DNA of 15,024 nucleotides, from the NCBI GenBank assembly GCA_001563335.1, contig LRSL01000101.1, positions 1-15,024 of the forward strand, read 5' to 3'. The notes beneath the pieces were generated by a model. It made no database searches. It was not told the origin of the DNA and was given only the letters and a program-made list of their open reading frames with translations. Shown in pieces: positions 3,492 to 8,676 of the stretch (its first letter is position 1; each line of letters begins with the position of its first letter). Source of the stretch: Candidatus Thorarchaeota archaeon SMTZ1-45 (GTDB lineage: Archaea > Asgardarchaeota > Thorarchaeia > Thorarchaeales > Thorarchaeaceae). The position numbers and the translations under genes were made by a program.

Positions 3492-4346
3492 CTATTTTTC
3501 AGTTGGTGTGAGACCGTCACCAGGTTCAGTCATCTGGACACGAAATAGTCTTTTCACATGTGAGAGAACAAGCCGGTCTCCATTGACAAGAACGTCAATC
3601 TCGATATGGTCCTGCAAGCCTGAAGTGGAGATCTTCTTCTCAAGGACTGCTTCAACCTGAAAGACGCCTGCAGGATTATCCATTGCGACAGTTATGTGTA
3701 GCGGCGTTCCTTTACCTCGCTCTAGAATGACATTATCAATAGCCATGGCACTGACTGAGTGTATATCGACCTTACCCTTCTGAAATGGTACTATTGTGCG
3801 GCCCTTGGTCATGTCGCATCCATCACCAAGCTTTGTGATTCCAGCCTCAAGGGTCAAACACTGTGTGTCATCATCATGAGCATAGATTCCGTGAAGGATG
3901 AAAGAGAGAATATCAGTAGCCTTCGCAGGGTCACCGTAGATATCCATAAGCTTCGACTCGAGAATGGGACTTGCCAAATTTATTGATGCTTGAGGGTGTT
4001 CGTTTCTGTGTACAACCATCCCAATATCATGGAGGTATGTTGATGCAAGAACTATGAGACGAGCATCATCCAAGTCTCCAATCCCTTCTGCTACCACATT
4101 TGGTTGGAACGTTTGTTCGAGAATGTCAAAGGCTTTCAGCGCATTCCATGTCGCAACTTCTGCATGGACTGGACCATGGTCTGTATAACCCAGTCTTGAT
4201 ACAGCCATTCGATTTGCTGTACGAAGATAGGACTGTACTTTCGGAGAACCAGTAAGGTGTTGATACATCTCCAGGGCAAGTGATTCGCCATTTAATAATT
4301 CACGTGCACGAATATTCTCTCGTTGAATGACTTCACTCGTATTCAT
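3492..4346 (-). CDS. HD-domain metal-dependent phosphohydrolase (COG3294-like)
   Basis: 'RLGYTDHGPVH', 'YLHDIGMVVHR', 'IYAHD', 'GDGCDMTKGR', 'DIHSVSAMAI' and 'NPAGVFQVE' are the conserved motifs of this HD family. Confidence 0.9.
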   Translation of the reverse strand: MNTSEVIQRENIRARELLNGESLALEMYQHLTGSPKVQSYLRTANRMAVSRLGYTDHGPVHAEVATWNALKAFDILEQTFQPNVVAEGIGDLDDARLIVLASTYLHDIGMVVHRNEHPQASINLASPILESKLMDIYGDPAKATDILSFILHGIYAHDDDTQCLTLEAGITKLGDGCDMTKGRTIVPFQKGKVDIHSVSAMAIDNVILERGKGTPLHITVAMDNPAGVFQVEAVLEKKISTSGLQDHIEIDVLVNGDRLVLSHVKRLFRVQMTEPGDGLTPTEK

Positions 4347-4454: not shown

Positions 4455-4473
4455 AGGTAGACTACATCTACCT
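4455..4473 (-). other. Perfect 7-bp inverted repeat overlapping the stop codon of the ribophorin-like gene (possible 3' stem-loop)
   Basis: AGGTAGA-CTACA-TCTACCT. Function not established. Confidence 0.35.
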
Positions 4474-7447
4474 AGATATCTCCAGCTTCTTCTTGTAATG
4501 ACAATAGGATGCGGTCGCTTGCACTTGTGGCTTTCTGAATGGTCTTCAGATAGTCCTGTCTTGACTTTTCAAAAGCAACGCGACTAATTCGTTGCTTCTT
4601 CTTCCGTAGTAGTAGCTGACGAAGGCCAGCCTTTGCACCCTCAATTCTTTCATCTTGAAGCTCAAGTTGCCCAACAAGATCTCGATACTTTGTCCCATAG
4701 TCTATCAGCTCCGCTCTCAGACTTGGGAGTTTGTTGTCAATCTCGTCAATTTGTTGTTTCAGGTCTCGTTCACGAATCATATACTCTCTCTTCTTTACCT
4801 TGCCTCTTCTTCGCGCTGCATCAAGCTTTTCCAAGTCCATGTTCAGTGAGGTTTTCCTTGAGTATAGATTTGCAAACTCTCTAAGGAGTTCAGGTGGAGC
4901 GCCGACTTGCTTGGGTTGTGTTTCTATGACATCCTCATCGTCTCGGGGTCCTAGGACTTCTTCAGGCAATTCGACCTTCCTCATTGCCACATATATGAGC
5001 CCGATGATTCCAATCAGAAGTGAGAAAACTGCAGGACGTGCTGCAGCCCCAAGTGTTGTTGTGTAGAATAATTCTATTGAGATTGGATTTCGCCTTGTCG
5101 TGTTATATGCTGTGTATCTGAGGGTGATATCGAAAACACCAAAAATCATTCGATAGCCTTCAGTTGCATCAGAGAATGACACTGTTGGAGTCAGTACAAC
5201 ATCAACAACATGTTTCAGAATGAAGACATCAGACAAAACAGCCATCGGTATTTGGAGCTTGTTTGCATTCAAATCAGCACTCTGATAATTACTTGTCTGA
5301 ATAATATAGTCTACAGTGAAGGTGTATCTAAATCCTGACTCCAGACCATCACCGAATCTGTCTGATACAAAGTTTATCCTGATAACACTGGTATCATTGA
5401 ATTCGTCATTTGCTATGAGTCTCTGCGACGACGCGAGAATACCGACCTCATCATAGATAGCGAATCTTGTGGAGTATGCAGGGACTTCGAATTCTAAATT
5501 GTTAAGGACACCAGCACCTATGTTGTTCAGTGTGATTGTTTCTCTGTAGAACAACCAGCCCCATGCATCTACAGTGATCCGTGTTGTGCGTTCAGCAACA
5601 ACATGTGTATTGAAGAGTCGCAGGTATGAGCCAAAGGTGTTTTTTGTGAATGGTGCCAGGTTACGAGCAGTTGAGTCTGGAATTGGCTCATTCGGTATCA
5701 ACGATCCACCCTGTTCAAAGACCAATGCAAACTCAGCATCACGAATGACATATGAGAGTAGGGGATATCTCAAGAACTCAAGTCGATATTCCCACTCACT
5801 GGGGTCTGTCAACCAGAACAGTCTTGTCATGTACATCGTTGTTTCGAAAGAGTACTGTTCTTGATATCCAATAGGGTCGCTGAAATGCAACCTCCAGCGT
5901 AGCATACCATTGGAGTCTGCAAGACGTGTGAGAGTAATCTCATTATCATCATCATCTATGGCAGTCATTGCTATGAAGTTTGATGCATAATCATCCGGTA
6001 GGAATATGTCAAAGTGGTTGATTGGGACAGAACCATTATTGACTATGGTATAACTGTCATCCACTCGGGACCCAAAGTGCACAGTTGGAACAAAGACACG
6101 TTCAACATCCACCTTCATGCCCAGATAGGGAGAGTAAGGCCTGTCAATAGTGACATTCACAAGTTCTATGGCTGTCGCATTTGATATGTCAGTTGCATTG
6201 AATGAAATAGTGTGAGATCCTTCAGAATATTCTGATATGTCAAGACTCACTTCCCAGAGTCTGGAAGTGAAGTCATACTCCAGAGAGCTCCAATCCTCTT
6301 GATCGAACCGATATGATGCGTCTTTCACCCAGTCATCAGTAGCATTGAGTTGCAGATTGACAACCCACTGTAGAGTGTCATTTTCTTTGGGGTTTTCAAC
6401 AATCAAAAGTGGCGGTGCATTTGGTTCAATGTTCACCATTGCAGGTTCGGTCCAAGAGGTATGCTGTACTGGTAATCCATTTAGCACCTCTTGATTACCA
6501 AACATAAAGATGAATGGAAATTGAATGTCTGTGCTGTTGAACAAGGGAATGTCGTTGATATCTGCACTGTTTAACAGAATCGCGAATTCAAGTTGAGTAA
6601 ATGTGCCATTGTCAGTTCCATCAGCCTGCAGAATCCTTGATTGGTCCGTGTCAGGACGATGTTGAAAAGTGCTTGTTCCATACTCATCACTGAATACAAT
6701 CTGACTCTGATCAGCTGGATTATCGAGCTCTGAGATTGTGTTCCTGTATATCCGCGTTAGTTCAATATCGTATATCAAGTCCTCTCCATAAAGCTCATGG
6801 TCCTTCTGAGTATAGGCTTGATGGGCGGGGATTGTGAAATGACGCTTCTCACCAACCCGCATTCCGAGTATGGCATCCTTGTACTTTTGGAGAGCATTAA
6901 CATCCTCAAGAGGTTGGACTGAGGTGATGTCTGGAAAGTCTGCCTCCTGAATTACTGTACCATTCCTCAATGTCAAGACATAGTGTACTGTCACAGCATC
7001 CGTCGGTAAGACCCTCCAATAAGGGTCAAGATTTGTACCAGGGGAATATCCAACTATGACATCACTGTTGTTCAGACCAGCTGCAGTGAATGTGTCAGTG
7101 TAGTTTTGCCATGCAAAGCCAATCCATCCTCCTGTTCTAGCCTCTAGACCAATAAACAACACAGTACCATTATGCTCAGCATAGACTCTAACCCCGGTCA
7201 CCGGATCCGTGTATGTGAGTGTATATTCAGTCGGGTCTATTATTCCATCAGTAATTCCATAGTAATCATCAACATAGGGGATAGATAGATTCACTACAGA
7301 CTCGGCCAAGGTTGACCCAAAGTCCCTGTTATGAGCCAAGTATCCTGATTCCAAAGTATCCGAGATTGGACTTAAAGCCATGAAACTGCTTGTCACGAAT
7401 AATGTGAGCAGTAGTAGGGTTGCTATCTTTCTATTCAACAGGCTCAA
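4472..7447 (-). CDS. RPN1: Ribophorin I (OST subunit RPN1/Ost1)-like type I membrane protein with N-terminal DOMON/CBM9-like, inserted FKBP and Ig-like domains and a cytosolic helical tail
   Basis: TTG start with GGTGA SD (7454-7458); signal peptide aa 1-25. RPN1-like motifs in aa ~444-797: 'NLAPF', 'TRITVDAWGWLFYRETITLNNIG' (cf. TRVIEVSHWGNIAVEE), 'VPAYSTRFAIYDEVGILASS' (cf. LP..YYRDEIGNVSTS), 'RF..GLESGFRYTFTVDY' (cf. RFPLFGGWKTHYIVGY). TM helix aa ~805-822. FKBP motifs 'DAVTVHY', 'GMRVGEKRHFTIPAHQAY', 'GEDLIYDIEL'. Confidence 0.82.
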   Translation of the reverse strand: MSLLNRKIATLLLLTLFVTSSFMALSPISDTLESGYLAHNRDFGSTLAESVVNLSIPYVDDYYGITDGIIDPTEYTLTYTDPVTGVRVYAEHNGTVLFIGLEARTGGWIGFAWQNYTDTFTAAGLNNSDVIVGYSPGTNLDPYWRVLPTDAVTVHYVLTLRNGTVIQEADFPDITSVQPLEDVNALQKYKDAILGMRVGEKRHFTIPAHQAYTQKDHELYGEDLIYDIELTRIYRNTISELDNPADQSQIVFSDEYGTSTFQHRPDTDQSRILQADGTDNGTFTQLEFAILLNSADINDIPLFNSTDIQFPFIFMFGNQEVLNGLPVQHTSWTEPAMVNIEPNAPPLLIVENPKENDTLQWVVNLQLNATDDWVKDASYRFDQEDWSSLEYDFTSRLWEVSLDISEYSEGSHTISFNATDISNATAIELVNVTIDRPYSPYLGMKVDVERVFVPTVHFGSRVDDSYTIVNNGSVPINHFDIFLPDDYASNFIAMTAIDDDDNEITLTRLADSNGMLRWRLHFSDPIGYQEQYSFETTMYMTRLFWLTDPSEWEYRLEFLRYPLLSYVIRDAEFALVFEQGGSLIPNEPIPDSTARNLAPFTKNTFGSYLRLFNTHVVAERTTRITVDAWGWLFYRETITLNNIGAGVLNNLEFEVPAYSTRFAIYDEVGILASSQRLIANDEFNDTSVIRINFVSDRFGDGLESGFRYTFTVDYIIQTSNYQSADLNANKLQIPMAVLSDVFILKHVVDVVLTPTVSFSDATEGYRMIFGVFDITLRYTAYNTTRRNPISIELFYTTTLGAAARPAVFSLLIGIIGLIYVAMRKVELPEEVLGPRDDEDVIETQPKQVGAPPELLREFANLYSRKTSLNMDLEKLDAARRRGKVKKREYMIRERDLKQQIDEIDNKLPSLRAELIDYGTKYRDLVGQLELQDERIEGAKAGLRQLLLRKKKQRISRVAFEKSRQDYLKTIQKATSASDRILLSLQEEAGDI

Positions 7448-7638
7448 TATGAATCACCGTGATTTCATCGGGGTTTATGTCGAGTGGATTCAGATTCCAC
7501 TATACGGGAGATTGGTCGCTCGAGCTTCTGGTTTGTTATTATAGATTTCGGATGTTGAAAGCATGCACGAACAATCGAATCCTCTCCGAAAGAGTCAAAA
7601 TGGTATCAAAGTGCCATCAGGCATCGGAAGTGGTCCAT

Positions 7639-8676
7639 GTGATTTCAATCCTCATTGCTTTATCTGCAGCATTTACAGTTGTTATACTTTTCATGCCTCA
7701 GGTAATCAAGATGCTGCGTGAGGCGGGGAGATTTGGAATCGATGTGCATAAACCAGAGAAGCCTGAGGTGCCCAAAGGTGGTGGACTCATAGTACTCTTC
7801 GCAATAGTCTTCGGCCTGCTTGTAGTCATTGGTATCACGACATTTCAGGAACAAGCAGAGGTCCATGAGGGGCTCCTTGCTGCATTGGTTTCAATACTCA
7901 TGGCAGGTTTCATTGGTCTTCTAGATGATACTTTTAATTTCACGACACGGACAAAAATCATCCTTCCATTGGTTGCCTCTATTCCAATGGTCGCAGTGAG
8001 TGTGGGCAACCCTACCATTTCAATTCCCTTTATTGGTACTATCAACTTTGGTCCATTCTATGCCCTTCTTATTGTCCCCTTGATGATGACTTTTATTGTA
8101 GACTCTACTAACATGTATGGGGGTATGAATGGACTTGAAGCAGGTCTAAGTACGATCAATTCCTCAGCAGTCATACTCTATGTCCTACTTTCGCCCTACG
8201 TTAATGGACATACGATAACGACAGCTCAGACTGACGCTGGAATGGTGGCTGCATCTCTATTTGGTGCATCTATTGCTTTTCTAATCTTCAACAGATTTCC
8301 AGCCAAAGTATTGCCAGGAGATGTTGGTAGGCTTCCACTTGGAGCTGCAATGGCGGCAGCGTTAATCTTGGGCAACATGGACCGGCTAGCCATAATAATG
8401 TACATACCATTCATGTTGAACTTTCTGCTTTACATAATATATCGTGTGTATGTCAAAAGAAGAAGAACCGAGTATGTAAAGTTCGCATCTCCAAGGGAGG
8501 ATGGGACTCTGGAGGTGATTGGTCCATTTACGATATATTGGATACTGCCATATCTCTCTAAGAACATAACAGAAAAACGGAATGTGCAAATGCTATTACT
8601 TCTGCAAGCGCTGATAGCATATGGAGCTGTGGTCTTTCTCCTCATTGCATATCCACTTGGAGTAGGTATAATCTAG
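7639..8676 (+). CDS. aglH: UDP-GlcNAc:dolichyl-phosphate GlcNAc-1-phosphotransferase (AglH/ALG7/DPAGT1-like, MraY/glycosyl transferase family 4)
   Basis: Polytopic membrane protein with 'GIDVHK..PEVPKGGG', 'GLLDD', 'NMYGGMNGLEAG', 'FNRFPAKVLPGDVG'. The ORF track starts at 7459, but the first ~60 codons look non-coding. Likely start is GTG 7639 after GAAGTGGT; ATG 7600 is an alternative. Confidence 0.85.
   Translation: MISILIALSAAFTVVILFMPQVIKMLREAGRFGIDVHKPEKPEVPKGGGLIVLFAIVFGLLVVIGITTFQEQAEVHEGLLAALVSILMAGFIGLLDDTFNFTTRTKIILPLVASIPMVAVSVGNPTISIPFIGTINFGPFYALLIVPLMMTFIVDSTNMYGGMNGLEAGLSTINSSAVILYVLLSPYVNGHTITTAQTDAGMVAASLFGASIAFLIFNRFPAKVLPGDVGRLPLGAAMAAALILGNMDRLAIIMYIPFMLNFLLYIIYRVYVKRRRTEYVKFASPREDGTLEVIGPFTIYWILPYLSKNITEKRNVQMLLLLQALIAYGAVVFLLIAYPLGVGII

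Follow-up and report, generated by a model that had tools for sequence, protein, structure and literature searches.

Ribophorin I (RPN1 in human, Ost1 in yeast) is the least understood large subunit of the eukaryotic oligosaccharyltransferase (OST), and its presumed roles are the presentation of substrates and the recruitment of accessory factors. In the animal endoplasmic reticulum (ER) it is partnered by malectin, and in the eukaryotic OST complexes solved to date the contact between STT3 and OST1 is made largely via small subunits. Bacterial PpiD and PrsA, which are unrelated to OST, are membrane-anchored extracytoplasmic foldases of the parvulin type at the Sec translocon. Published work assigns malectins to the OST complex and to quality control in the ER (PMC8861646) and describes human FKBP11 as binding the Sec61/OST-A/TRAP translocon (PMC12804085). 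OST1 homologues are already known from Asgard archaea (Eme et al. 2023; PMC11417166), and the four-helix bundle of the OST1 of Lokiarchaeon MK-D1 is reported to have the topology of the human RPN1 domain and to pull down human ribosomes (PMC11417166). Here, we describe the OST1 gene of Candidatus Thorarchaeota archaeon SMTZ1-45, in which the ribophorin I body is preceded by an FKBP domain nested inside a DOMON-superfamily β-sandwich and by an Ig-like domain, trace this fusion across Asgard genomes, and weigh what its N-terminal module may do.

The window analysed here is the whole 15,024-nucleotide (nt) stretch that makes up contig C101 of the source genome (87.7% complete, 119 contigs). The OST1 gene is present in a single copy in this genome by protein and profile searches, and its product divides into the following parts, with residue positions in amino acids (aa):

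4472..7447, minus strand: OST1/ribophorin I gene, an uninterrupted open reading frame (ORF) of 991 aa with a TTG start
7370..7447, minus strand: hydrophobic leader (aa 1-26), with basic residues and a hydrophobic run ending ...SSFMA
7022..7288, minus strand: first half of the DOMON-superfamily β-sandwich (aa ~54-142), by fold match
6734..7021, minus strand: FKBP domain (aa ~143-238), inserted in a DOMON loop
6422..6733, minus strand: second half of the DOMON-superfamily β-sandwich (aa ~239-342), by fold match
6137..6415, minus strand: Ig-like (Big_7-type) domain (aa ~345-437), by fold match
5612..6130, minus strand: ribophorin I lobe 1 (aa ~440-612), by matches to RPN1/Ost1 structures
5057..5611, minus strand: ribophorin I lobe 2 (aa ~613-797), by matches to RPN1/Ost1 structures
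4979..5053, minus strand: single transmembrane (TM) helix (aa 799-823), a helix in the AlphaFold2 model
4481..4906, minus strand: cytoplasmic four-helix bundle (aa 848-989), by match to 8WHN

The protein is a type I membrane protein in which an N-terminal DOMON(FKBP)-Ig extension is followed by an OST1 body formed by the 550 C-terminal aa. A first-pass annotation of the DNA had proposed this order of leader, DOMON with an FKBP inside, Ig-like domain, two lobes, TM helix and helical tail, and our analysis recovered it throughout. A second TTG three codons into the ORF yields the 988-aa form deposited as database protein P0002. In a protein database search, full-length homologues shared 51-100% identity with the 991-aa protein, and the closest records are named by their sources as Thorarchaeota, Sifarchaeia or Promethearchaeota metagenome-assembled genomes. 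In a full-length AlphaFold2 model built from an alignment of 33 orthologues, a helix occupies aa 2-21 of the leader; judged by eye from the sequence and this modelled helix, the leader is probably a signal peptide. The extracellular part holds 15 N-x-S/T sequons, where shuffled sequences average 7.2 (standard deviation 2.5), and seven of the 15 are invariant across the 33 sequences. Together with the complete lack of sequons in the tail, this number fits the predicted topology. The whole protein contains no cysteine.

Ribophorin I identity of the C-terminal body

Homology and predicted fold together establish the C-terminal 550 aa as a true OST1/RPN1 orthologue. Over aa 444-797 the full-length model has a pLDDT of ~85-95, and a Foldseek search of the PDB returned human RPN1 or yeast Ost1 as all eight of its best chains (E 4e-27 to 1e-17), the next class being integrins from E 5e-11. 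Structural comparison with RPN1/Ost1 (6S7O, 8B6L, 8PN9; 6EZN, 6C26, 7OCI) gave Z scores of 21.5-25.0 with 369-516 residues aligned at 12-17% sequence identity. These alignments begin at model residue 436-441 and pass through the TM helix to residue 826-833, and that with RPN1 of human OST-A continues through the cytoplasmic bundle to residue 984. The two tandem β-sandwich lobes, lumenal or extracellular in position, and the TM helix are thus common to all of these proteins, and human RPN1 also shares the four-helix bundle; however, RPN1 and Ost1 begin with lobe 1 directly after the signal peptide, whereas the archaeal protein has ~440 extra residues before it.

We also considered a generic aminopeptidase sandwich as the identity of this region and rejected it. 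The N-terminal sandwiches of M1 aminopeptidases and LTA4 hydrolase align with Z 12.3-13.0, far below the RPN1/Ost1 values, and over essentially one lobe (614-796). The RPN1-like region recognized in the first-pass annotation is therefore specific, and not of the generic aminopeptidase-N or S-layer type, as the match spans both lobes, the TM helix and the tail.

Profile searches connect the fused protein to plain OST1 proteins and, through these, to the eukaryotic subunits. A profile of the full-length fused family (A1) aligns over its positions ~442-985 with plain OST1 proteins that are ~560-625 aa long, at E values of ~1e-60 to 1e-25 (P0141, E 8e-61), and plain OST1 proteins found in this way score 62, 53 and 42 bits on the Pfam Ribophorin_I model (PF04597; cut-off 25). 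A second profile, A3, was made from aa 437-991 of the window protein and 44 plain OST1 proteins. Against PDB sequences it matches human RPN1 (E 3.5e-46) and yeast Ost1 (E 7.5e-25), both titled 'dolichyl-diphosphooligosaccharide-protein glycosyltransferase subunit 1'; the same search with A1 returned only the tail (8WHN) and FKBPs, with zero RPN1/Ost1 matches at E ≤ 1. An hhalign comparison of A1 with A3 is circular, since the window sequence is part of A3, and we give it no weight. PF04597 itself matches 12 of the 33 orthologues at E ≤ 0.01 (best 9.6e-10), with the matches mapping to lobe 2 (aa 643-769 in P0043, for example), and 18 of 120 listed relatives carry a precomputed Ribophorin_I annotation. 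Run over the whole source genome this model gave no match, and it gave none in control genomes either, so that the genome-wide search is uninformative.

The tail forms four long helices in the AlphaFold2 model (aa 852-987) and is a homologue of the domain through which RPN1 and Lokiarchaeon OST1 bind ribosomes. As a single sequence, residues 848-984 match the cytoplasmic domain of MK-D1 OST1 (8WHN) with E 2.6e-5, a value that falls to 6.6e-7 with the A1 profile and to 1.3e-48 with the A3 profile, and the two structures superpose with Z 17.0 and a root-mean-square deviation of 2.1 Å over 141 residues. Conservation peaks in the tail, where 32 orthologues are on average 84% identical to the window protein, and the tail holds long invariant basic runs. 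MK-D1 OST1 (8WHN; PMC11417166) and the plain Asgard OST1 proteins belong to the same family but, unlike the fused protein, are without the N-terminal module.

The N-terminal module and its distribution

To characterize the extension, aa 45-440 were folded alone with 41 sequences (pLDDT 90.2, pTM 0.81), and the model was compared with 48,161 PDB representatives. DOMON-type matches span model residues ~6-300, with the second half reaching 298-300, equivalent to aa 342-344. The best of these is EbdC (2ivf_C; Z 15.9, 168 residues aligned over model residues 10-298), followed by NxrC (15.4), the DOMON domain of dopamine β-hydroxylase (DBH; 13.2), CBM9 (12.3) and the fungal cytochrome domains of pyranose-DH and CDH (11.8-12.3; CDH 11.8). 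FKBP folds match model residues 99-194, with SlyD at Z 12.7, FKBP13 at 11.6 (28% identity) and human FKBP11 at 11.0 (26% identity). Because these matches fall inside the DOMON span, the FKBP is an insertion within the DOMON fold, which bears out the nesting in a DOMON/CBM9-like sandwich that had been proposed from the letters of the DNA. The archaeal domain thus shares its fold with the DOMON superfamily (EbdC/NxrC, DBH, CDH, CBM9) over ~141-176 residues but differs from its members in having an entire FKBP domain inserted in one loop.

Sequence models recover these parts unevenly. FKBP_C (PF00254) matches aa 148-230 of the window protein (E 4.1e-10, 40.3 bits, cut-off 21.1) and is found in 33 of 33 orthologues. 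Pfam DOMON (PF03351) is found in five of the 33 (best E 6e-5) and not on the window protein; a phmmer search of the second DOMON half against the PDB gave non-significant matches only, and an ESM Atlas search with aa 45-345 reached DOMON clusters at a score of 0.75, which we take as no more than a lead. The first DOMON half carries a YGxxDGIIDPxEY motif conserved in the orthologue alignment, and W113 is invariant in 41 of 41 sequences. Big_7 (PF17957) falls below its cut-off of 24.1 on the window protein (E 0.015, 16.3 bits) and matches 15 of the 33 orthologues at E ≤ 0.01 (best E 6.4e-11, up to 43.2 bits), and Ig-like folds match model residues 301-393 with Z 10-13.6 (best 6tn6_A). Mean identity is 72% and 66% for the two DOMON halves and 67% for the FKBP, compared with 52-54% for the ribophorin lobes.

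Two further observations concern single segments of the module. In a global protein library, giant proteins of 1,000-4,700 aa (P0134-P0271) contain 4-25 copies of the Ig-like unit of aa ~337-433, which is a common surface-protein repeat. A likeness of aa 296-326 in the second DOMON half (nt ~6470-6562; pattern PF.FM.G.QEV..G) to FKBP12 residues 29-60 was not significant (E 0.45-1.6), and the family consensus does not preserve the shared residues NQEV..G; odd as it is beside a genuine FKBP, the likeness is probably due to chance, and we rejected it.

We surveyed 400 Asgard genomes with the A1 profile, including 85 genomes of family f1 and one genome of f2, a family of the same order. Full-length fused matches (positions 1-988), which are frames of ~981-1012 aa or pieces ended by contig edges, occur in 82 of the 85 f1 genomes and in the single f2 genome. 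Among the matches listed, beyond which lie a further 181 weaker ones, all those outside f1 and f2 begin at profile position 441 or later, and the OST1 proteins of other Asgard families are plain frames of ~560-710 aa that lack the N-terminal module. The module alone is complete in 81 of the 85 f1 genomes and in the f2 genome; elsewhere in the 400 genomes only pieces of it were found (small FKBPs, Ig repeats, DOMON starts). At the upper end of the size range, the plain OST1 frames of family f13 (G083-G091; 682-710 aa) are ~100 aa longer and match only over their C-terminal ~210 residues, and they may represent a different N-terminal elaboration.

The fusion is an old, fixed feature of its lineage and not an assembly artefact, because it is an uninterrupted and usually single-copy OST1 in nearly all genomes of the family; a one-off misassembly, which the first-pass annotation had allowed for, is refuted by the same count. 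Of the survey across Asgard and Bathyarchaeia genomes that it had outlined, our analysis covered Asgard genomes and a global protein library, and the fusion is confined to one Asgard order. A module of ~440 aa was thus added at the N-terminus in the ancestor of a single Asgard order (Thor-type, by database names).

A global library of 1.84 billion cluster representatives gave a similar picture. The full architecture forms two full-length clusters (P0122, P0125) and fragments, alongside many plain OST1 proteins and some stand-alone DOMON-FKBP-Ig proteins of 421-586 aa, and the complete module turned up there only in the fused family and in stand-alone paralogues. Three of the latter (P0129, P0132 and P0133; 567-586 aa) have a further Ig-like domain and a C-terminal TM anchor, and P0131 (421 aa) ends without an anchor. 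Stand-alone copies were seen in two of the 86 f1 and f2 genomes, and the following loci were recorded:

G337:C125:6153-7430 (L031): stand-alone, membrane-anchored paralogue of the module with a further Ig-like domain
G318:C23:20692-21867 (L032): stand-alone, membrane-anchored paralogue of the module with a further Ig-like domain

In a midpoint-rooted tree of the module, the stand-alone copies form one long-branched group (support 98/99) nested among the fused sequences, and they likely arose by later duplication.

Members of the family are entered in databases as 'FKBP-type peptidyl-prolyl cis-trans isomerase', 'Ig-like domain-containing protein' or 'hypothetical protein'. We found no description of the architecture in the open-access PMC and bioRxiv literature (main texts), in keeping with the first-pass annotation, which knew of none.

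Gene neighbourhood and pathway genes

The gene next to OST1 encodes an Alg7/DPAGT1-like GlcNAc-1-phosphate transferase (GT4) that is transcribed divergently, head-to-head with OST1. Enzymes of the Alg7 type start the synthesis of the lipid-linked glycan. Three genes are of note for the surroundings and the pathway:

7459..8676, plus strand: Alg7/DPAGT1-like GlcNAc-1-phosphate transferase (Glycos_transf_4, Pfam E 7.8e-27)
3492..4346, minus strand: HD-domain gene (Pfam HD E 0.0011, below cut-off)
10238-10660 of contig C24 in the source genome (L033; G000:C24), minus strand: OST3/6-like protein of 140 aa

The best solved relative of the Glycos_transf_4 protein is human DPAGT1 (E 4.7e-17, compared with 3.3e-10 for MraY). 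Its longest ORF starts 11 nt from the OST1 start, and homology begins near residue 38-64; the sequence suggests that the actual start is probably the ATG at 7600 (MVSKCH...), in which case a spacer of ~150 bp containing an AT-rich TTATTATAGA stretch would separate the two divergent genes. The HD-domain gene follows OST1 on the same strand after a gap of 125 nt.

Archaeal housekeeping genes make up the surroundings (topoisomerase VI A and B, a KH protein, RIO1, eIF-1A and NMD3), and the block HD - OST1 - (divergent) GT4 - Top6A - Top6B - KH - RIO1 - eIF1A - NMD3, including the position of the HD-domain gene, is kept in eight of eight loci from other genera of the family and the same-order genome. 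Of six plain OST1 loci checked in other Asgard families, four (L027-L030) have a GT4 gene in the ~7 kb of flanking sequence retrieved, and in L029 the two genes are adjacent and divergent. OST1 and the Alg7-like GT4 gene therefore look like a conserved N-glycosylation gene pair across several Asgard families.

The source genome also encodes STT3 (C24:4027-6771; 914 aa, 165.8 bits) and the OST3/6-like protein, whose genes lie ~3.5 kb apart on contig C24 with unrelated genes between them. The OST3/6-like match is limited to positions 182-288 of the 294 in the Pfam model, its C-terminal membrane portion, which indicates that this protein is without the thioredoxin-like domain of its eukaryotic counterparts.

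Two further genes lie at the start of the contig. A HEPN AbiV-like protein is encoded at 2142-2915 on the plus strand (E 5.7e-15), between the OST1 block and an uncharacterised gene, and had zero tblastn matches in the ~17-kb OST1 surroundings of eight related genomes. The AbiV-like family is known from abortive-infection defence. The uncharacterised gene is an ORF at 3-1967 on the plus strand (640-654 aa) that runs off the contig start; nothing in Pfam or NCBIfam matches it, the Atlas offers no usable neighbour, and its Atlas model is poor, with a pLDDT of 0.30.

Proposed function and alternatives

The presence of an FKBP within a DOMON domain on the sole OST1 suggests a folding helper built into the membrane glycosylation machinery. 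We consider it reasonably likely that the protein is an OST1-resident helper, in which an FKBP isomerase or holdase, with a possible glycan binder, is tethered at the OST-translocon. The protein would sit in the cytoplasmic membrane beside AglB/STT3 and SecY/Sec61, with its tail docking the translating ribosome. The outward-facing FKBP, tethered in this way, would isomerise prolines or act as a holdase on chains as they emerge and are N-glycosylated, with the DOMON domain offering a second binding surface, possibly for glycan or peptide. The divergent promoter region shared with the Alg7-like gene may tie OST1 expression to the N-glycosylation pathway. We infer this mechanism from what is established about RPN1 function and from the work on MK-D1; the locus itself contributes homology, fold, topology signals, conservation and linkage.

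We examined the FKBP pocket by alignment to FKBP13, using the FKBP12 numbering of the canonical residues (Y26, F36, D37, F46, V55, I56, W59, Y82, F99). Y26 and Y82 are kept in the family, F36 is replaced by I or L, and the altered positions are nearly invariant. The pocket-equivalent residues Y156, Y189, Y212 and Y226 hardly vary, each being present in 39-41 of 41 sequences. P0125, the order-level orthologue, comes closer to the canonical pocket, keeping F36, D37, V55, I56 and Y82, and has the highest FKBP_C score (50.8 bits). The pocket is hence conserved yet altered, and catalysis cannot be read from its sequence.

Several observations weigh against the folding-helper proposal. The pocket of the family is non-canonical, with D37 replaced by Q in 33 of 41 sequences, W59 and F99 by Y, and F46 by S. 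The best structural matches of the DOMON domain are the haem-binding subunits EbdC and NxrC, ahead of CBM9. The fusion was not found in the other Asgard families sampled, and so is neither general nor ancestral. The full-length model has a pTM of 0.43 and does not give the relative placement of the N-terminal module and the OST1 lobes, and PF04597 has zero matches to the window protein at E ≤ 1. Finally, by analogy with the argument made for FKBP11, a tethered FKBP need not be a catalyst.

This last point leads to the main rival. The authors of the FKBP11-translocon structure find the nominal catalytic site buried by a partner, argue against isomerase action and favour an adaptor role (PMC12804085), and for this reason we treat an adaptor reading of the archaeal protein as the principal alternative: the FKBP would be an adaptor or structural element that recruits or positions another extracellular factor at the translocon, or that simply braces the DOMON domain. 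Its placement as an insertion inside another domain, the loss of the canonical Asp and the other pocket changes would all suit such a role. However, the near-invariance of the aromatic positions is what a retained ligand pocket would show, P0125 keeps D37 and four other canonical residues, and a partner for recruitment is not known, and we therefore hold the adaptor reading to be rather doubtful. More specific than the folding-helper proposal itself is the idea of a lectin-chaperone station built into the OST-translocon, in which the DOMON domain would grip the N-glycan just attached by AglB and the FKBP would at the same time isomerise prolines of that chain. We regard this elaboration as unlikely; if true, one polypeptide would correspond to the separate ER factors assembled on animal ribophorin I (malectin, FKBP11), and ribophorin I would have been a docking platform for folding factors before the ER or independently of it.

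The fold of the DOMON domain could instead point to a b-type cytochrome (EbdC, NxrC, CDH-like) with a role in redox or electron transfer at the cell surface and none in glycoprotein folding, as the top matches, including the pyranose-DH and CDH domains, are haem-binding, and the potential ligands H92, H263 and M315 are kept in 37-40 of 41 sequences. But P0125 has Q, R and A at these positions and H263 and M315 vary in the stand-alone paralogues, which led us to downgrade the haem-ligand idea; the non-haem DBH DOMON and CBM9 match nearly as well, and the protein has neither cysteine nor another redox domain. A cytochrome is thus very improbable. It is also improbable that the module is a surface or adhesion decoration carried by OST1, facing the environment or the S-layer and not nascent chains. 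The module does stand alone on a membrane anchor (P0129, P0132 and P0133, and the G337 and G318 loci), and giant surface proteins commonly repeat its Ig-like unit. Yet the fused form is the only OST1 in nearly every family genome, the module is more conserved than the OST1 lobes, and the rarity of the stand-alone copies and their nesting among fused sequences are consistent with later duplication.

The folding-helper reading, which we favour, has partial parallels elsewhere. Like PpiD and PrsA, the protein would place a PPIase-type domain at the outer face of the membrane where chains emerge, a likeness of concept. Malectin and the archaeal DOMON domain have in common a β-sandwich, in the DOMON domain only a possible carbohydrate binder, that is associated with ribophorin I, but malectin has another fold and is a separate protein. 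The closest arrangement is that of human FKBP11 (9N9J/9YGY; PMC12804085), in which a membrane protein that binds ribosomes holds an FKBP at the lumenal or outer face of the OST-translocon. There FKBP11 acts as an independent and regulated accessory factor, whereas in the archaeon the FKBP is built covalently into OST1 within a DOMON domain. The restriction of the fusion to a single Asgard order gives no indication that the two arrangements share descent.

Selection has hard-wired a folding-type domain onto ribophorin I and kept the result as the only OST1 copy across an Asgard order, and the added module is more conserved than the ribophorin lobes it was joined to. With ~400 soluble residues, the module offers a compact and expressible model for what a translocon-tethered FKBP does, a question newly opened for human FKBP11, and the pairing of OST1 with an Alg7-like gene across several Asgard families may serve as a simple genomic marker of the pathway. 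For the archaea themselves, the protein would give a handle on how secreted glycoproteins are folded outside the cell, where ATP is absent.

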